A stretch of DNA of 64,000 nucleotides. Source: Pseudovirgaria hyperparasitica. Lineage: Eukaryota. Both the position numbers and the translations under genes were made by a program. Shown in pieces: positions 5,002 through 18,054 of the stretch; within the stretch, counting starts at the first letter, position 1; every line of letters starts with the position of its first letter. Below the pieces are notes generated by a model, which worked only from the letters and a program-made list of their open reading frames with translations, was not told where the DNA came from and made no database searches. The stretch lies in NCBI GenBank assembly GCA_010093815.1, contig ML996566.1. The stretch is one strand, 5' to 3'.

Positions 5002-8000
5002 CTACTCCTCCTGACGCGCAACCCAGTCCAGCACACGCCCGATATACGCCCTGCTGATCATACCACACTCCTCTGAGTCTGTCAAGTCTATCTTGTCAAT
5101 GCCATCACTAGACTGTTCATCAGGCACTGCTGTACCATCACCACCACCTCCCCTCCCCCCGACCCAATTCCCCCTCCACAGCGGAATCAAAGCCTTGGCC
5201 TGGTGATCTCCAGGCGCAGCGTCCAACCGCGCGAGCCAGATATGCGGGGGGATGAATTGCGTTTGTTGGGGGTGCTTCCTGGATGCTGCCCATTGTGTGA
5301 TCCAGGTTTGGATGTGGGACCAGGGGGTGTGTGTTGCGGGGTTGGTGTTTGAGATTGGGGTGATTGTTATGGCGGATTGAGATGCTGGTTGTGGTAGACT
5401 GTGCATTTCCGCAACGACGCGGCGCGCGGCCACATCGACGGGGAGCCAATCTACGGCTTTGAGATGTGCGGATGCGAGATCGGGGAGGGTAATGTTATCC
5501 TGTCCACTATCATCACTGCAGAGGTCGAGCTTGAGCTTAAGCCCGGCAGATAGCATCAGCGGCCACGCCTCACGCGCATTCCAGATCCCCGTCGTCGAGG
5601 CTCCGCTCAGCTGTCCGACGCGCAGGACCGAGACCGCGACTGCTGCACTGGAATTGCGAGAGAGGCTGTCCAGGACGCGCTCTGCGACCCATTTGCTCTG
5701 CGCGTAGCCTAGATCTGCTGCGTCGTGGGGGTGTGCTGAGATGGAGTGGTCTTGCTTTGTGTTGGCGGATGCGCGTGCGATGCTGGCGACTGAGGAGCAG
5801 AAGATGAGTCTTTTAGGTGGTAGACTTGGGTGTGATTGTGCAGCGCCGAGGAGGAGGAGGGTGTGCAGATTGACGACGCCCTCGAGTTGCGGCGCGAAGG
5901 ATTTGAGGGGCAGGGTGAAGTTGACGTCCCATGCGGCGTGGATGACGTGTGTTGTCTGAGAGACGAGTGAGGCGTAGGTTTCGGGCGAGAGGCCGAGGAG
6001 GGGGTGTTTGAGGTGGAAGGGGATGTATGTGATTTTGTCGAGTGCAGACTTGGGGAGGGTTTGGGCGAGGTGGTGGATGTTTAATGCGGCTTCGACGCGG
6101 CTTTGTGCGGTGGTTGTTTGTTTGGAGTGAGGGTTTGCGCTGGAGTCGCGGATGAGGAGGAATATGTTTGAGATGCTGGGGTCGGTGAGGAGGTGGTGGA
6201 GGATGTGGGTTCCTAGGAAGCCTGTGCTGCCAGTTAAGATCACTTTTGCTTTGCCTGGTTGTGAGGCTTCTGCTGTTGTATGGGTGTGTTTTGCAGCGTG
6301 CTCCAATAGCTGCGGTTGGAGAGCCATGTATTGGTCTACCATGGCCCGCATCTCGTCATCTTTGGTAGTTTGATTAGCATCCATCGAGCCAGTCTTCCCG
6401 GTACGTTCTAGCACGAAGTTGACCAAGGCATTGATTGATCCACATTCGTACACGACGCTCAGGGGTACCAGAGGCCGTATTCGAGCGGGAAGCATGCCGC
6501 AGATCTGTTTGCGAATGACAATGGACTTGGCAGAATCCATGCCAGCCTCGAACAGGTCCTGATCGGGGCTGAAATTGTCTGACTGGTGAAGGGCGCTGCA
6601 GACGAGATGTTTGATTTTCTCACGCATGTTGGCGGGATCTCCTGTCAAGCAGTCTGCACCATCGTCCTCGTGATCAGAGTTATAGATGCGATTGATCTCA
6701 GAACTAAATTCCGCAATGAATCCGCTTCGTATGACACCCCCTTTGCTGTTCTTGCGAACTCGACTATGTGCCGAAAAGGATAGGATGCATAAGTTTGTCT
6801 TCTCAAGCTTTGCATGAGACGGGCTCGACATGTTTACTTGCTGTATATGATGCCATATGTTTTCATGGGCATCGACGTCCTTGATTTTGTCCTGGCTTGC
6901 GGCCATGAAGATAATGGCTGCAGGAAATGGTCTGTCGTCGCCGATAACGATGGCATCTTCAATTATCTCGATACGACGAAGCGCTTGCTCAATGGGCGTC
7001 GGATCGAATTTCTTGCCAGTACTGAGTGTCAATTGTGCATCTGATCGACCAATATAGTTCCAAGCACCGTCGATTCCTTCGTGTGGTATGAACACATCAT
7101 GTGTATTGAAAGGTCGTCTTGCATGCGCTGCTACAGACACAAGCGGCCAGTTTTCCTCAACTATAAGTTCATGCCGACCATCGGCCATGCGTTGGAAGTT
7201 CAGTCCTTCCGAATTACGGCAGCGCAGTACGTGCCATCGTTTGTCATTCGCATAGTCACGCTGCGATGACAACAGAAATCCGCATTCAGAACTGCCAAAT
7301 CGACTGACGAGGTTGATACCTTCAGCCACGATCTTATCTCCAAGTTCTCGGGGCATTGCGGCACCACCGACGCCGACCGCACTCAAACGCCGAAGTCTAT
7401 CTTTCAACGCTGTCGATTCGACTATAGTCTCTAAGACGAAGGGAACGCATGATAGAAACTGAAGTTTGGTAGCGGGGAACCTTGGATGGGTTTCCGCTAT
7501 ACGATCAATGCCATCGATGCAAGATGAGATAATCTGTGAGGTGATGGGCATAGTGCGTTCTGGAAATATCCATAGTGGCGAGGCTGCACTCCATGAACGC
7601 AATAGATCCGCAATACCACCCGAGTATAGTGGGGTCGTGGTGAATGTACTGCTGCGTTGGTCTATATCACCACAGCCTTGTAGTCTGGGTAGCACACCTA
7701 CAGCTCCATGGTGAGTTGAAGGTATTAGCTTTGGAAGTCCGGTTGTGCCGGATGAGTGACGATAGAATGCGATTGATTCAGGGGGCTCAGATTGGTTTGC
7801 AGTCTTTTTTCCCGCAGTATGGAGTTCGCTTCTACAGACTGAGTCCAGTGATGGCCACGGCAATTCAAACTGCTTCACGCCTTCTCTTGTTCGGTCGTCA
7901 CTATCGTGGTGCTCCGAATTGGACGAATCCTTGGGCCTGTGACACAATGCCTCCGAGACCACACCTGCATGTTCACGGTCGAAACATATGGCAAATGACC

Positions 8001-8560
8001 TGCTCAGCTTGATCAAGTGCAATATGGCCTCCGGTGAATTTTGTGGCCTGATTCAGTCAATCGATGGAGATATATTAGGGTATAAGCTTGCTTACGAGAC
8101 GAGAAGTACCTCGTAGCCCGACCGGATGAACGCCAACCACGTGAGCAGAAACACAATTGAACTGGATGCTATGAGCGCAATGCACTGCTTCCCCTGTTGG
8201 TTCTGTCCAAACACATGGCGGAAATGCTGACTGAGTCGACAAGTTTGCTCATCCACTTCGGCAAAGGCTGCAATCTGAAGTCAGATAAGTTTATTGAAGG
8301 ACGCTCATTTTGAGCATACTCAACAGCTCCTCGACAAGCCCATCTTGTGAGTGTCCTGATGTCTTGTCTGGTGTGACACATCCCACAGCGAGGTGTCCAC
8401 CGTAGTTTTGGGCCAGGAACGATACAAACTCATCAATATTGTTGAATTGTGCATGTTCACTCACAAGGCCCTCTGGCGTCTGACGAATTCGTACTTCGTA
8501 ATTGCCCCTGTTATGTGCCAAGGCTTCTGAGAGCGTACACGTGAAATACGAGGGTATCAT
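5002..8560 (-). CDS. NRPS-like A-T-R enzyme (carboxylic acid reductase type)
   Basis: Exons 8560-8320, 8267-8096, 8047-5002 splice in frame (EELLT-FAEVD; VLLVS-PQNSPEAILHL). A domain: HSSGTTGLPK, FGSSECG, IGRSD, NSKG. T domain: LFEAGMDS. Terminal SDR reductase: ILTGSTGFLG, IHAAW, YAQSKWVAE, RVGQL. Confidence 0.93.
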
Positions 8561-9266
8561 TATTGCAGCGCGAGGTCTCGTGACATTGTCCTCTGGGGTC
8601 TAGCCAGCAGCAGCAGCAGTCAAGCATAAATCACTCATCTCGTCCAACATACGGGAAGAGCGGCATTAATTCATGTCGGGATAAATCGCAAAGGCAAAGC
8701 CTGTTGTCAATAAACAACGTGTTATCGCGCTGCCAGGTTCCGTGTCCACTTTCTTGCATACGATGATGACTTCGATCATGGCAATTTACATCATCATGAA
8801 GCATAAATGCCGTGTAATAACAAACCTAGCTCATGTAGTTTCGTGTTGTTTGGCTGAGAGTGATGAGACATAGTGGACGACGTCACGATATCGTGCCAAG
8901 AGGTGGTCGACTAGCCTGAGACAGTTAGAGTTTGGTCCCTATTCTCCGGGGGGATCCCTGTGGTCCATAACGCTCTGCAACGGTCAGATCTAGATCTCCG
9001 GCTTTGGAGAATCCTATGTTACGCTGCCCTAAGCGACAGCTCCATACTTTGCACGTCCATGCGGAAAATTTGTATCAACGGAAATGGTTCCGATGTCACA
9101 CAAACATGTGTCGAGTGTATTGCGTGAGATACCAAGGTTATTCATCACTAATTGACTTCGAGATCAGAAGAGGGTACATTTTGCCATTGTGCTGAATATA
9201 CTAGACGTCACTTAAGCTGATATACTAGTTGGTCTGTGCTTATGACTAACTACTCCACTTTCGGAC

Positions 9267-10715
9267 TTATGCTTGCACCGGCTGCAGTAATTTACTCTCA
9301 TTCATCAGATCACCATTCTCGTGGTGTGCGTCCTGCACAAGTGCCTTGTGACCGTTCGGGATTTTGCTTGACATGCCATTCGAGTGGCCGTTGGCAGAGC
9401 CGTTTGGTTGCCCTTTGCCGAGATTCTTGGGTGACACTACAGTTGGCTCACCAGTATCAGAAGCATCCACATATGCTTCGAGACCATCCCCACTGCGGGG
9501 AAAGCCTGCGGTATACTTCTTGTGGTCTTTCAGGACTCGCTGCAGATCTCCCACGGAAAACTCGTTCACGAACTGACATTGGCCCAGAGGACTAGGCACT
9601 GCAAGTCGTAGGGCACCATCCCGGGTCTTCAGGATTGCCTCCGTACCCTTCTCGATGGCTACATCATCGTACAACTGATGATCAATACTGAGACCTGCGC
9701 GGGAGAAAAGCGTAAGAATGCGTGTGTGATCCTCCTTGGAAAGCATGCCACGATCGTAAGCGAGAGTTGCTGTGTATGCCATGTCGATGCTGATCGCATG
9801 GCCGTGGCGAAGGGGTGGTTCAGGCTGAAGTTCGTGGAAAGGTGACCATCTGTTGTAATCAGCACAGTACCTTCGTAATCCCTATCGGAATACCTACGTA
9901 TGACCATACGCAATGACTCGGTCAAGCATAATCTCATGCAGATTGGGAGTCTCAAGTTTCAACATCTCGTAGATTGCATCGTAACAGATTTCGTCTGCAA
10001 CCTTGCGAACCTCGGGTCTGCTGCCCTCAAGACGCCCAAATTTGGTGTCGATGAGCTCCTCGCAGTATCTGTCGAGAGAATTAAAAGTCTTCAAGTCAGC
10101 GCAGGAGCTGATCTTAATAATCTCCGCAAAACCGTTCCGGACCTGCGCAATGGGAAGCGTCTTCAGAAAGCTGAAGTCAAGGAAAGTCCAGATCGGAGCA
10201 TGGTAAGCTCCAAGGCGATTCTTGTAGTTTCCGTAATTGACAGCAACTTTGATACTCACACTTGCATCAATCAGCCCAATGAGAGTAGTAGGCACGCGAA
10301 TAAAGTTGGTTGTGCGCCTGTAGCATGCGCAGGCAAATCCAGCGACGTCAGTCACTAGTCCACCTCCAACGACCAGGACAGGCTCTTTGCGGATGATGCC
10401 GAAATTGGTCATGGACTCGACAATCTTCAGAAGAGTCTCGATACTCTTGGCCTTTTCTCCCACAGCCATGGCATGAAATGTGACAGGAATGTTGTAGTGG
10501 TCGAAATATTTCTTGATCTCATCTGCGTAGAGCGCTTTCATATTCTCATCTAGAACAGTCAAGACGCGGCCCCATTTCTGGTAACATTCCGCGAGTTGTT
10601 TATTCTTGATGTCGAAAACACCCTCAACGAAAGCGAAATCGTAGTTTAGCTTCTCGTAGCCAGCAACGGAAAACCCATTGTCTGTTTTAGTGACAGAAGC
10701 TTGCATGTCTGACAT
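9267..10715 (-). CDS. mysA: Desmethyl-4-deoxygadusol synthase (DDGS, sedoheptulose-7-phosphate cyclase; MysA homologue)
   Basis: Exons 10715-9898 and 9849-9267 (48-bp intron 9850-9897). DHQS-fold motifs GGGLVTD, RVPTTLIG, KNRLGAYH; DDGS-type MLKLETPNLHE and LDRVIAYGHTWSP; metal-binding RHGHA. Confidence 0.95.
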
Positions 10716-11226
10716 GGTGAAAGTATCGATCGAAGTGAGGTGACTGGTAAGGGATGATTCAAGCTGACTGAGGGAAATGGAAACAGCGATTTTGCTGTAG
10801 ACGTGCAGATCTCAAAACCGACATGCGAGTCTGGTATCAGTAGCTTCAGCAAAGAGTGCGTGGAAAACTGAATGTCCAGAGGGCCATGGAGGAAGCACTC
10901 AATATATACGCCAGAATGGTTCCACGTGCAAAGGGGGGACGGGACGAAAAGCTAAGCTCGCTTTGGTGTCCACATGAAAACATGTCCGTGAAATGATGAG
11001 GTCTGCTAAAGAGAGGTCGATCATGCAATGAGTGACCCACTTGTGGCACAACAGTGACGTCCACGACATATGCTGATAGTGAGCCAAATACCGTGGTGCA
11101 TTTCGACATGCTGGTCGACTGGGGAACGCTCCGACTTAATTGTTGTTTAGAAAGCATTTGTCTCTCGATATTTCAAGATTCAGCACTACCATTCACATAA
11201 TATCCGTGTAAATGTCGACAGCCACC

Positions 11227-12122
11227 ATGGTGACCCAAGACTACAAGCAAAAGGAAGACATATGGGTAATGACTTTAGTGATGCATGCCAGAAATTTGCT
11301 GACGTGGTCTCCTAGTTCGACGACGGCCGAGAAGAGCGATTGCTTGAATATGTGAAAGAACATCTGGACCTGGCAGCTTCCAATAAGTCCGAAGAGGTCA
11401 TTCGTCTCATTGATGAGTTCGGCGTGAACCATCATTATATGATGAATGTCGGAGCTCGAAAGGGACGAATCGTCACTGAAGTCATCACGCAACGCAAGCC
11501 GAAGACAATGATAGAGCTTGGGAGTTATATTGGATATTCAACGGTGTTGTTCGCCGCGGCGATGCGGGATGCTGGAGGACAAGAATATATTTCATTTGAA
11601 CGCGAGCCTAAATTCGCACGCGTTGCGGCCGCGATGGTCGAACTAGCAGGACTGGCCAATCACGTACGATTTGTTATTGGTCCAAGCTCAAATGGTCTCG
11701 TGGAAGAGCATAAGGCTGGCCGCTTGAGTCAGGCCGATGTGGTCTTTCTAGATCACTACAAACCAGCATACGTCAAGGACTTGAAGATAATGGAGTCACT
11801 TGGGGTGATTCGAGTTAATACTGTCCTGGTAGCGGACAATGTTATTGAGCCAGGTAATCCGACCTACCTAGAGTACGTCAGGAGCACACCAGAGAAAAAG
11901 CAGCAGCGCTTAAAGGGGGAAGCAGCCACGTCAGATGATTCGATTGCATTCCCATCTCGCGCAGTTAATCAATATACTAAGGAGTATGCTACTGATAAGA
12001 CTGAGCTTCCAGGGCTACCAGGCATTGTTTACAAGAGTCGGATTGAGCACAGCCATGAGCCCACAGGAGTGCCAGATGGTATTGAGATAACCGTTTGCTT
12101 ATCATTACCAAGTCCGAATTAG
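11227..12122 (+). CDS. mysB: SAM-dependent O-methyltransferase, catechol-OMT type (MysB role)
   Basis: GCCACCATGG start at 11227; intron 11266-11315 gives MVTQDYKQKEDIWFDDGREE. Motifs MMNVG..KG, IELGSYIGYS, FLDHYK..Y, VADNV. Divergent from DDGS. Confidence 0.9.
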
Positions 12123-12167
12123 TATAGGGAAGGTACTCGATACAAAGATCTTTACCCTGCTCACTTG

Positions 12168-13667
12168 TCACGCTTTGAAGATTTTCGCCGTGCTAACATT
12201 GATCTCCTTCCACCTGAGCCCGCAATAAGTTGCCAAAATTAACTCCAAAGGCCAAAACAAATGATTGAGAACAAACCAGGGCAGTGGATCCCACCATACG
12301 AATGTTGGATCTCTCCAGGTGCACAAATTACGAATGGCGAGAAGTATCTGCTGAACAAGACTCGACCTATTCACATCAGCTGTACCAAACAGTAAACCCC
12401 ACAGAGATCCGGCGACCAGTACAACCAGATCATGGGCCATCCAGTAGTAGCCAGATTCTGATTCCGTTGTCGCATGCAATAATTGGCCAGCTGGAACGCG
12501 AGTCAAACATTCGAGGTACTTGTCCGCCAATTCCTGCTCGAGTCCCTCGAAGAGAACGGTGGCTGTATGGCATCTCGGATTGCATTCGATTGGGGCTAAT
12601 GTACCGATGAATCCATTCTCGGTCGATCGATAGCGGACGAGGAAATCGAAGCTCATGTGTCCGGTAATATCGCCGAGTCCGGAAGCGTAGTTAATGGTGA
12701 ATTCAAGCATCTTATTGTATAATACAGATTTTGTGTCCAACCGCTGGTAGTGCATGAGCACAGATGCACTTGGACACGCGGTGAATGCGCGAACTTCTCC
12801 TTTGATGATGAGTGCATGTGTGCAGTACTCTTCCCCACTATCAATGAACTCCTGCAGTATCCATTGACGGCCATTCGAGAAGTCCAGATTGCTCAAAGTC
12901 TGCTCAGCGTGTGCCTCATCCTGGAGACTGATAAGCGGAAGAGAGCCTCGACTGGCATCATCCATATTGGCGCTCTTGATCATATATCGTACGTCGAGCT
13001 CATCTTTAGTGGTTTTTCGCATCTTCTTAAGCAGAATCCGAATACCATTCAGACTGCTAAGTGCGTACCATTTAACATTGGCTAGCTTTAGCTCAGTGGT
13101 CTTCTTCATGAACTCGAACTTGTTGTCTAAGGTTGATACAGTCGATTCGTCGAATTGGAACACCTTGCATTTTGTCTTTCGCTCGATCGCGTTCGCCAAC
13201 ATTGCATCCTCTACCGCAGTTGCGACTCCAGAACAACTGATCCATAGATCTATGCGCTCGAAATTGACGATGTTGACAACCTGGGAGATGTAGGCCTCTA
13301 TGCCATATACGGCTGGATTCTTCAGAGCAAAAAACTTCCTGATGGACCTGGAAAACCTGCCACAGTAAATATTTCCGTGGCCATCATCAAAGTCACCCGC
13401 GACAATGTCACATCCGCCAAGGTACATCGTGCGCGCAAGGAAAAGGCCTTTGGCCATCTTGACGCCTGTAACCAAAATCCGAGGCTGAGATCCGCCAATG
13501 TTTCGAACATGTCTTCTTGGAGCCTGCCTAATATGTAGAGTTTGTAGTGCGATTGCGAACAGGGTGATGGTGCCACTAACGGGCAGGAATACACCGCTCA
13601 GGATGAGTATCAATATTGTACGACATGAGTGAAGAATGGTTGAGTCTCCGCACTTGAGGTCCATCAT
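12168..13667 (-). CDS. mysC: ATP-grasp ligase of mycosporine biosynthesis (MysC homologue)
   Basis: 499-aa intronless ORF. N-terminal hydrophobic helix, ILVTGVKMAKGLFLAR, GRFSRSI, WILQEFI, EYCTH, GHMSFDF, PIECNPR, C-terminal WDPLPW. Adjacent to DDGS and OMT. Confidence 0.92.
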   Translation of the reverse strand: MMDLKCGDSTILHSCRTILILILSGVFLPVSGTITLFAIALQTLHIRQAPRRHVRNIGGSQPRILVTGVKMAKGLFLARTMYLGGCDIVAGDFDDGHGNIYCGRFSRSIRKFFALKNPAVYGIEAYISQVVNIVNFERIDLWISCSGVATAVEDAMLANAIERKTKCKVFQFDESTVSTLDNKFEFMKKTTELKLANVKWYALSSLNGIRILLKKMRKTTKDELDVRYMIKSANMDDASRGSLPLISLQDEAHAEQTLSNLDFSNGRQWILQEFIDSGEEYCTHALIIKGEVRAFTACPSASVLMHYQRLDTKSVLYNKMLEFTINYASGLGDITGHMSFDFLVRYRSTENGFIGTLAPIECNPRCHTATVLFEGLEQELADKYLECLTRVPAGQLLHATTESESGYYWMAHDLVVLVAGSLWGLLFGTADVNRSSLVQQILLAIRNLCTWRDPTFVWWDPLPWFVLNHLFWPLELILATYCGLRWKEINVSTAKIFKA

Positions 13668-14085
13668 ATTTGGACAAAGGAGACTTTGGAGGTAAACACA
13701 CGATCATACCTTTCCTGACGATTGATCAAAAGTACTATGTCCTAAGACGTGCGCTACGAACCCTGTTTACTAGTTGGGGTGACAATGACCCAGACGATAG
13801 GAGTCAATTACGTCATGTTTGTCGAGTGCGACTTTCAGTGCTGGGATGCGATAGGAGATGCCGGAAGATTTGACAGGCAAATAATCACTCTTAGCCTCTA
13901 GGTTGTGGCGTCCTATGGATGGTGGTGATTAGCACGAGGAAGTTCAACGAAGAAGGTTCCATAGTAGCGCGTTAGCTTTGAGATGCTTGACGGTTTATTA
14001 GTGCCTCTAGTTCCTAGTTGGTAAAAGCTGCAGAGAAGAAGTTGATGAGAGAATGGAGCACTGCATGGATACTGAATTTTCAGCC

Positions 14086-14580
14086 ATCCGTATATCCATA
14101 GTTACATGGGAAAGCTTGGCGCCCGATGTTCGCCGTGTCACCAACACACACGATTTAGTATAATCGACATTTTTATCTATTACCGCCGTATAATACTTAT
14201 ATAGTACTAAATATTACTAAATATTAGTTCTATATAATTCTTATTATATCTCTATAGCCTTTATATTACTTTATATTATCTATAATACCTCTAAAACTAT
14301 AAAAAAAGAGTAGTTATATAGAGATATTCTTACGTCTAGCTAGATATATACCCCTATATTTAAAGGCGCTCTAGATAGATATAGGGGAGGTATTAGGGGT
14401 CTATAGTACTATATATTAGTTATACTACCTCTTTAATACTATACTATATAGTTATAGATACTATATAAGCGTAGTATAGTAGTAATAGATAAAAATATCG
14501 ATTATACTAAATCGTGCGTGTTGGTGACACGGGCGAACATCGGGCGCCAAGCTTTCCCATGTAACTATGGATATACGGAT
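14086..14580. mobile_element. Non-autonomous inverted-repeat element (MITE-like), RIP-degraded interior
   Basis: Terminal inverted repeats 14086-14183 and 14482-14580 (ATCCGTATATCCATAGTTACATGGGAAAGCTTGGCGCCCG...) differ by one indel and two transitions. Interior is very AT/TpA-rich and non-coding. Confidence 0.85.
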
Positions 14581-15187
14581 CCATAAGCGGGCCCGTGCGT
14601 ACACACCAAGGTCCAAGATTCGGATCTCACATCCGCATGAATCTCCTACGCCTCTGTCACCGGTAATGACAGCAAATCCTTTTGATACCAACTGAGGCTA
14701 TTAGATAGCCCTGTATCAATTCAAGGAGCTCATATGTGCGCGTCTGATCTGACCCAGTCCCAGTCTAAGCCCATGGACCCGCTATAGGCTATAGCTTGCT
14801 CTTTAGGCACATCTGCCTCTACGCAAAACGAACATTAGGATCAGTAAGCTCTGCACCGTTTCCATCGAAATTCAGAGCGATCGGTCGGCTCACGCAACAC
14901 GCGGCACACGTAATAACATGGCGTTTCGCTTTCTGTCGGTACTGATACTGGTAATTCCGAAGCCAGCTGCAATTCGCCTGAACATCGAAAAGTTTGCCGA
15001 ATTGCGTGATAGCCCCATTTTAAATCTGCTCACAATAGACAAATATAATACACCACAGGATGCCAAACAAGGATAACATTGCATTCCCTAGCTCTTCATC
15101 TGTCGTAAGTCACTCATAATCAACACTCTCCTCCAGGTCAGCTATATTATTATCGTCTACAGTATCTGGGCTCCGAGGACAGTCGCC

Positions 15188-16621
15188 ATGTCAACTACTT
15201 CCTTCGACAATACCGCCATATATCCCCAAAAGCTGTCGCTCTTTAGATCTGTACCTTTCCAGATCCTAGTAGCATGTGGAGTCTCATTCACGGCACCCGG
15301 AATGTGGGATGCTCTCGGTGGACTCGGTGCTGGAGGTGCTGCTGAACCATACGCAGTGTCTGCTGCCAATGCTCTCGTGTATGGTTTGTTTTCTGTTGTA
15401 TGCGTGGCTGCCGGAGCTATCAACAATCGTATCGACCTCAAATACGGACTCGCTTTAGGCGCTATCGGGTACCCACTGTATGGCGCAGGACTGTACACGA
15501 ACAGTACAGGCACCAACACATGGTTTCTGTTGTTTGGTAGCGCTCTTTGTGGAATTTCTGCTGGGTTCTTTTGGGCAGCTGAAGCAGCAATCATCATTGG
15601 ATATCCATCACCGTCGGACCGAGCATTCTATCTTGCAATCTGGCAAACAGCAAAGGCTGCTGGCCCCATAGTTGGCGGCGCTATCAATCTAGGGTTGAAT
15701 GCAAACAGGGAGACGGCAGGCTCCGTTTCGTCTTCTACCTACATCGTATTCATCGTCATAATGTGCCTCGGCTTGCCGATTGCGCTTATGCTCTCTCCAG
15801 CCCCAAAGGTTTGGAGAAAAGATGGGAGCAAGATAATCATACACAGAGCTCCTTCATGGGCAGCCGAGTTCAAGGGCATCGGGAATTTGTTAATCAGTCG
15901 GCGTATTCTGTTATTACTGCCGGCATTTTTCATTAGCTACTTCTACAACGGGTTCATGAGCACCTGGTTGACAACATACTTCACTGTCCGTGCTAGAGCC
16001 TTTTCAAGCTTCTTCACGAACTTTGCCGGAATATTCAGCTCTTTCATTATCGCAGCTCTGCTCGACAATCAAAGAATTCATATCAAGACACGAGCTCGCG
16101 TCGCATTCATCGCAATAGTAGCTATCCTCATTGGAACATGGATATGGGCAACAATTCTACAAAGGCAGAACTACGATACGTCAACCCCGCCGGTATTTGA
16201 CTGGTTCCAGGGAGGTTTCGGAAAAAGCTATGCCTTGATATTCTTCTGGCAATTTGGTGGACAAGCATTCCAGCAGTTCTTATATTGGCTTGTCGGGCAA
16301 TATGCGACGTCACTGTCGAGCTTAAGCCACCATACTGGTATACTCAGAGGTGTAGAAGCTCTAGGGCAGACTGTTGCTTGGGCGTAAGTGATGGAAAACA
16401 AAACAAATCCCTCGAGATTTCCAAGCTAATGGATGCTTTGCAGAATGCAATCGGAGGGTAATGCCAATCATTTCGTAAGTATCGGACTAAACTTTGGTAT
16501 CACGGTAGTATGTATCATTCCGACCTGGATTGTCCTTTCTGAGCTCGAGTACAGCCATGAAGGGACAGGGGATGATGGTCCCGGGGACTCAGGAATACTA
16601 AAAGATGCCGATGAGTCATGA
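15188..16621 (+). CDS. UNC-93-like (DUF895-type) MFS transporter
   Basis: Exons 15188-16383 and 16444-16621. Many TM helices; family motifs APGMWDALGGLGAGG, GISAGFFWAAEAAIIIGYP, IVGGAINLGLN. Confidence 0.87.
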
Positions 16622-17000: not shown

Positions 17001-18054
17001 ATGAAAGGCTTCGAGCCACTTTACCAGGCCAGTAACCAGCCAACACCCAAAATCAACACACCAATAACACCACATCCAGCTAATCGCACATGCACAAGCG
17101 CAGACCACAGCTACCCAGCCCTTCAACCCATTTTCACTCCTACCCGGTCTCCTCACTCTCGCGCCTCTCTCAAACATCGCTCACCGTACTGCCATTCAAG
17201 GCGTCTCCCCACTCGACGCGTTGATCCTGGCCCCCGGCCTGCACCTTCAACAAACAGCCACCGAACTACATAAAGCTGAGTACCCAGCCTGCGCAGCTCT
17301 CACCACAGGCTATGTCTTCCGCGTCGAGAACCCCGCCACCGTCTTCTTCCTCCAACGCATCGGCCGCACCGGGCATCTGATTGACCTGGACGTCTCTGCG
17401 ACATCTCCTTCGCGGACCCTGCCGGCTTCTAGGAACGCAATCGCATCTCTGGCCTACTACGCCGCAGCAGGAGTCACTACCTATTCTGCGTACCGCCTCT
17501 ATGCGCTCAAAGATCCCTGGGCAATGGTGTTCCTGTCCAATCTCATCCTCACGCGGGTAGTCAACTTCGTCTCGTTGCGCCGGCGCTCGGAACTAGGCTG
17601 GTTCGGAGCGCCGGAACCAGGCGTACGGAGTGATATCCTTGTTCTACTCTCCCAGGACCGCTGGATTCGTATCCGTGGCGCGACAGATGATGTCAAAGGG
17701 CTGTTGTCTGGCACGTGGCTGAGGGAGCCCACGACTGGGGAGAAGTTCTTTGGCGCCGTTACGAAGTTGCTTGCGTATGCGAATGTAGCTGTTGCGGGTT
17801 ATGCTACGACGGCTGGCGTTGCCACGCTGATGTCTATGTTGCTTGTGAACGGCGGCTTGTTGGCGTTGGATGGGCTGCGAGACTGGCCGCTATGTATGTA
17901 TGGGAGAACAATGGGACAAGTTGGCGAGGCGAAGAGATATTTTCGGAGGAGAGATCTGGCGGAAGAGCTGATCAAGGAGACTGGACGAGACGATTGGGCT
18001 GTTGGCATGGGAATGATAGTCAAGAAGAACGAGACGGTACTAGTAACCATGTAG
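17001..18054 (+). CDS. Multi-pass membrane protein of unknown function
   Basis: ATG 17001 with intron from 17032 (acceptor at 17098 or 17110, both in frame) joins the 17221-18054 ORF. Hydrophobic segments and conserved-looking LDALILAPG.H.QQ and LLSQDRWIRIRG. Confidence 0.65.

Follow-up and report, generated by a model that had tools for sequence, protein, structure and literature searches.

The window analysed here, 64,000 nucleotides of contig ML996566.1 from Pseudovirgaria hyperparasitica, carries a mycosporine locus that is probably best explained as a cluster of four genes lying beside an unrelated transporter gene, with the fourth cluster gene encoding the enzyme that reduces the carboxyl group of the mycosporine. 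The kind of cluster is known: its core is that of the known fungal mycosporine cluster and comprises genes for a demethyl-4-deoxygadusol synthase (DDGS; 10715-9267, minus strand; 466 aa; Pfam DHQ_synthase; a single intron at 9897-9850), a MysB-like O-methyltransferase (OMT; 11212-12122, plus strand; 286 aa; Pfam Methyltransf_3; a predicted intron at 11266-11315) and a fungal mycosporine ATP-grasp ligase assigned on its predicted fold (13667-12168, minus strand; 499 aa; intronless). The new part is the fourth gene (8560-5002, minus strand; exons 8560-8320, 8267-8096 and 8047-5002), which encodes a 1152-aa protein resembling both a nonribosomal peptide synthetase (NRPS) and a carboxylic acid reductase (CAR), with adenylation, thiolation and reductase domains (A-T-R; Pfam AMP-binding, PP-binding and NAD_binding_4).

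The core very likely makes a mycosporine, as the original prediction, made from the sequence of this locus, had proposed. Exon 1 of the DDGS gene scores 315 bits against PDB entry 5TPR, 157 against 4P53 and below 100 against dehydroquinate synthases; we take 5TPR to be the Anabaena DDGS and 4P53 to be the synthase of 2-epi-5-epi-valiolone (EEVS), and on these exon 1 bit scores the protein is assigned to DDGS rather than to either of the other two classes. The ATP-grasp protein has no Pfam match, and its alignment found nothing significant in the PDB by sequence; the fold search alone gave matches, the model (pLDDT 88) retrieving ATP-grasp ligases, of which the L-amino acid ligase RizA was the best (E 9e-13), so that the assignment of this core neighbour is on predicted fold. 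The adjacent OMT has three further relatives in the genome (33-48% identity), and OMT relatives adjoin DDGS and ATP-grasp genes in many metagenome loci. In genome searches, which scored the best candidates, DDGS, this type of ligase and the A-T-R family were each represented once, at this locus; the second match to the DDGS query (31%) lies inside a 1601-aa frame.

It is established for these families that DDGS and OMT convert sedoheptulose-7-phosphate to 4-deoxygadusol, and that the ATP-grasp ligase joins an amino acid to it via the amino group; the core enzymes of the window would act likewise. The A-T-R enzyme would next activate the mycosporine-amino acid by adenylating its free carboxyl, hold it as a phosphopantetheine thioester and reduce the thioester with NADPH to an aldehyde, and the alcohol would be completed either by an aldo-keto reductase, whose gene is part of the cluster in sister loci but unlinked here, or by the reductase domain itself. 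From known chemistry it follows that the predicted product would be a mono-substituted mycosporine, here an amino-alcohol, absorbing at ~310 nm. No glycosyltransferase or MysD-type gene occurs among the 12 open reading frames (ORFs) scanned at positions 698-23278, in agreement with the original prediction.

The five contiguous genes, counting the transporter, were described as intact, and this is confirmed: the models are free of internal stops, all introns, as spliced from the window sequence, are GT-AG, and database proteins of equal length and 100% identity exist for the A-T-R (P0001; 1152 aa), the ATP-grasp ligase (P0121; 499 aa) and the transporter (P0241; 457 aa), P0001 and P0241 being labelled Pseudovirgaria hyperparasitica in the source database. 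The A-T-R, DDGS and transporter genes are transcribed and spliced, since in contigs from two public runs (X1 and X2, representing at most one sample and uninformative on expression level, gene ranking or co-regulation) the A-T-R sequence is joined across its two introns, and the DDGS and transporter sequences each across their single one. The OMT start codon and intron are predicted, and that intron is not among the spliced joints seen in the contigs. The OMT and ATP-grasp genes converge, with stop codons 45 bp apart.

The A-T-R likely belongs to the mycosporine pathway, because its gene is linked to the core in several independent lineages and in different positions; on this point, too, the original prediction stands. 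With the ligase alignment as query, a scan of metagenome contigs yielded 147 confirmed relatives, from which 80 loci, most of them short, were kept (48 groups at 90% identity). In five of the 80, equivalent to three of the 48 groups (L005; L057; L070/71/73), no more than 10 kb separates the ATP-grasp gene from an A-T-R gene, and L088, the sole locus reached by a search from the A-T-R side, has ligase, OMT, DDGS and A-T-R in a row. Among the linked loci the A-T-R occupies three different positions relative to the core, the same-strand order of DDGS then A-T-R being common to the window, L057 and L088. In named genomes, where linkage was judged from equal-size contigs alone, the best 119 A-T-R and the best 119 ATP-grasp relatives show 10 exact matches in contig size, compared with ~0.2 expected from the density of near-misses. 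Nine of these fall among the 22 closest A-T-Rs: nine of the 14 on contigs of at least 15 kb (one of the 14 was later placed in the main lineage described below) and none of the eight on shorter contigs. Tothia and Amniculicola appear by name on the A-T-R as well as the ATP-grasp side, and five of the nine shared contigs measure 16-68 kb. Moreover, the A-T-R family is kept in lichen and other fungi even where it is unlinked to the core; we infer an old four-gene unit, often broken up while its genes persist in the genome.

Two of the linked loci call for separate comment. L057:1-6619 holds A-T-R, DDGS and ATP-grasp genes, with no OMT match in the 2 kb that separate DDGS from the ligase. L088 is a 1.18-Mb contig in an alphaproteobacterial bin, and the only match from the prokaryote collection; a bacterial homologue was considered and rejected, as the genes of its four-gene cluster are intron-split, and we read the contig as fungal, its place among bacterial sequences being probably due to contamination.

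The aldehyde that the A-T-R would release has a candidate partner. Immediately upstream of the ATP-grasp gene, L001 (105-1154), L002 (720-1769), L003 (37-588) and L005 (8488-9558, plus strand) carry an aldo-keto reductase gene, which in the last of these is between the A-T-R and ATP-grasp genes. These four are the loci in which the ATP-grasp is closest to that of the window and upstream DNA is present; the gene occurs in none of the remaining 76 ATP-grasp loci. We regard its product as a candidate for the conversion of aldehyde to alcohol. The window contains no orthologue of it, and the closest genomic match, which lies on contig C7 (51%), is doubtful as an orthologue. The pathway had been described as self-contained; this cannot be maintained, given that the locus includes neither a phosphopantetheinyl transferase nor an aldehyde reductase, and that the sister loci have the aldo-keto reductase.

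In the A-T-R enzyme itself, motifs A3, A5, A7 and A10, the thiolation serine and the GxxGxxG and YxxxK motifs of the reductase domain are intact and near-invariant over the 119 best relatives, and A8 is also intact; the architecture expected of CARs (EC 1.2.1.30) is present, including Ser643, Gly744/747/750, Tyr919 and Lys923, and by sequence the PDB entries that match it best are those of reductase domains and of bacterial CARs. The model (pTM 0.59), searched by fold, matched adenylation domains in general and pointed to no substrate. Motif A4 reads PLY(H/S/T)GG, as in acyl and aryl ligases. Amino-acid-activating adenylation domains carry an amino-binding Asp at a position in A4 that is occupied here by Gly; because this Asp is missing, reduction after ligation is favoured on present sequence evidence. 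The reverse order, in which the A-T-R would first reduce a free amino acid, yielding the amino-alcohol that the ATP-grasp ligase would then attach to 4-deoxygadusol, also fits the linkage data and accords with a scheme in which the ligase is drawn as incorporating glutaminol (in the available text of PMC10057719). Nevertheless, it is improbable in view of both the A4 motif and the listing of acid forms, such as mycosporine-glutamine, from fungi.

Two side observations concern the A-T-R family. Within the gene, GC content at third codon positions (GC3) is 0.64 in the thiolation-reductase part (5005-6660) and 0.47 in the adenylation part; a chimeric origin was considered and rejected, each domain being on average closest to one and the same subclade. 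Additionally, P0114, a 1411-aa relative, has PF01501, which we take to be a glycosyltransferase family, ahead of its A-T-R domains; it is either a fusion or a gene-calling merger, and the combination is of interest for glucosylated mycosporines.

Reduction of the mycosporine carboxyl by the A-T-R is, on balance, the more probable role for this enzyme, and several observations weigh against it. Nine groups have the complete core flanked on each side by 4.5 kb or more; an A-T-R is nearby in two of them and not in the other seven. In the main lineage, one of the 63 A-T-Rs on long contigs (best 120 listed) matches an ATP-grasp contig, that of Agyrium, in which the two genes are 83 locus tags apart. 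Equal-size contigs are an indirect sign of linkage, compatible with non-adjacent genes, and the correlation between A-T-R and ATP-grasp identities over the 11 linked pairs (rho 0.82) would also be given by kinship alone. Intron 2 of the A-T-R gene has two donors on the minus strand, one at 8095 (run X2), giving an in-frame intron of 48 nt, and one at 8109 (run X1), giving an intron of 62 nt, and the sole X1 contig over this intron uses the latter, 14 bases upstream, which shifts the frame and leads to a stop after 157 aa; the original prediction had overlooked this second donor. The strongest result against a required A-T-R is that the three Phaffia genes, expressed in Saccharomyces cerevisiae with no A-T-R added, gave an HPLC peak co-migrating with mycosporine-glutaminol (PMC10057719, section 2.3). 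Taken at face value, this contradicts the premise of the original prediction that the three core enzymes cannot give an amino-alcohol, albeit by HPLC co-migration only.

Further objections come from the adenylation domain. In the Neurospora enzyme NcCAR, five residues are described as essential, among them His237 and Glu433 (available text of PMC5826065). By motif mapping, three of the five are kept in the window A-T-R; His237, in the PxxH motif, corresponds to Ser280, and Glu433, in the hinge motif LxxGEK, to Lys483. The PxxH histidine is present in 98/98 main-lineage sequences versus 6/20 aligned close relatives of the window enzyme. The hinge lysine, found in 118 of the 119 best relatives, is for that reason a trait of the family, to judge from the alignment, and not decay. 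The predicted enzyme is thus built like a CAR but does not bear the CAR signature, and the divergent clade to which it belongs may accept another substrate.

These observations are the substance of an alternative in which the A-T-R is linked but dispensable for the amino-alcohol: host enzymes would supply that step, and the A-T-R would make another derivative or use another acid. The yeast experiment, the seven groups that lack a nearby A-T-R and the departure from the CAR signature all favour it. We nonetheless consider it rather unlikely, since the linkage recurs in different positions and lineages, an aldo-keto reductase accompanies the cluster in sister loci, and lichen and other fungi retain the A-T-R family even unlinked; moreover, the yeast peak was assigned by retention time and spectrum, and the main text mentions neither mass spectrometry (MS) nor nuclear magnetic resonance (NMR) for its identification (PMC10057719). 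We keep carboxyl reduction by the A-T-R as a good and testable hypothesis, more likely than not to be correct, for which both synteny and the aldo-keto reductase in sister loci speak.

The window A-T-R falls in a divergent clade with those of Tothia, Amniculicola, Golovinomyces, Erysiphe and a lichen subgroup, whereas the taxonomic kin of these fungi (Venturia, Pleosporales and Oculimacula) are in the main lineage, the split having 100/100 support. Trees were built from 44 of 120 listed sequences and, more carefully, from 18 named ones; forcing Tothia with Venturia is rejected (p-AU 0.0006, for a group picked after seeing the earlier tree). An ATP-grasp tree (76 sequences; FastTree) recovers a matching clade, with Xylariales relatives outside it. 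Horizontal transfer and old paralogy with loss both fit these trees as possible histories. Codon composition gives no sign of recent transfer (GC3 of 0.47-0.64 for the cluster and 0.45-0.82 for its neighbours). The powdery mildews Golovinomyces and Erysiphe are in the clade for both genes, on short contigs (P0004, P0005, P0019, P0123, P0132, P0138 and P0140), and the clade accordingly predicts mycosporine synthesis in powdery mildews. A broader proposal is tentative, and we would not call it likely: that the A-T-R family is the missing amino-alcohol enzyme of ascomycetes, working with the aldo-keto reductase, and that the locus described here is a distinct, horizontally moved version, which a mycoparasite shares with scattered Dothideomycetes, powdery mildews and some lichen fungi and which, through a changed adenylation pocket, would make a different mycosporine.

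The fifth gene, encoding an UNC-93-like MFS transporter (15188-16621, plus strand; 457 aa; intron 16384-16443; Pfam MFS_1 and UNC-93), is probably a neighbour and not a member; its membership of the cluster is unlikely. The original prediction had made it the product transporter in a self-contained five-gene unit. In favour of this, the gene, which is intact and spliced, lies next to the ATP-grasp gene and points away from it, and MFS and ATP-grasp relatives share one equal-size contig (4905 bp). However, no MFS match occurs in any of the 80 ATP-grasp loci or in L088, whose cluster is flanked by an amino-acid permease of a different family; the aldo-keto reductase holds the MFS slot in the sister loci; there are no equal-size contigs with A-T-R relatives, and the single ATP-grasp one is within chance (~0.2). 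Furthermore, the 119 best relatives (from the best 120 of 999) are 77-88% identical, against 47-60% for the best matches of the A-T-R and ATP-grasp proteins, and come from widespread fungi, including many Pleosporales, Xylariales, Colletotrichum and Fusarium, as befits a conserved gene. Synteny, therefore, largely refutes the five-gene unit, which we consider very improbable, and leaves four genes in its place.

Between the divergent ATP-grasp and MFS genes lies a 495-bp MITE-like element (14086-14580), outside the pathway and also overlooked in the original prediction. It has a 49-bp perfect terminal inverted repeat that continues with mismatches, and its core is 24% GC with no CpA/TpG, resembling the product of repeat-induced point mutation. 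Six other copies examined are 484-496 bp long and 72-99.8% identical, and the element end has 40 scored matches in the genome. Adjoining the MFS gene is a spliced gene with no Pfam family (17001-18054, plus strand), which has no match in any of the 80 ATP-grasp loci.

The step from amino acid to amino-alcohol in fungal mycosporines has no enzyme assigned to it in the literature searched. Balskus and Walsh (2010) and Miyamoto (2014) reportedly present clusters from fungi and may refer to a reductase already. We found no test of an A-T-R as the amino-alcohol enzyme in a search that left subscription papers mostly uncovered, so that the idea may be in print; the step carries no assigned enzyme in the available text of PMC6891770, PMC10666671, PMC10384724, PMC3360786, PMC3252866, PMC13157890, PMC4974774, PMC3083659, PMC4426668 or bioRxiv 10.1101/2025.07.21.665953. 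Together, the four-gene cluster and its five-gene sister with the aldo-keto reductase make this step testable; if the proposal is true, a widespread NRPS-like family, at present an orphan, would gain a function, and yeast could be made to produce more kinds of natural sunscreen.

Fungal mycosporine clusters have been described as comprising three genes (PMC10057719, in its available text). The MYC cluster of Phaffia rhodozyma has the same DDGS, OMT and ATP-grasp genes, a mono-substituted mycosporine is likewise expected, and in both fungi any glucosylation gene lies outside the cluster; Phaffia, however, is a basidiomycete with three genes and no A-T-R described, whereas the window is from an ascomycete and has a fourth gene (PMC10057719, same text). 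In the Hypoxylaceae, NRPS-like clusters, forming two clades of four clusters, have been linked to mycosporine-like compounds left unidentified, but the text available gives the NRPS-like enzyme no role (PMC8403587), and Xylariales ATP-grasps fall outside the clade of the window. The shinorine locus of Anabaena variabilis (mysABC with MysE) also combines DDGS, OMT and ATP-grasp with an NRPS-like gene; there, MysE has a terminal thioesterase domain (A-T-TE) and adds a second amino acid (PMC10666671, as far as available). The window enzyme ends instead in a reductase (NAD_binding_4), and no D-Ala-D-Ala ligase is found among the 12 ORFs, so that neither shinorine-type route, by MysD or by MysE, is represented. 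NcCAR shares with the window enzyme its A-T-R architecture and the thiolation serine, reductase-domain Tyr and Lys, and A5, A7 and A8 residues, and differs from it at the PxxH histidine, which is Ser in the window, and at the hinge glutamate, which is Lys in nearly the whole window A-T-R family (PMC5826065, available text).

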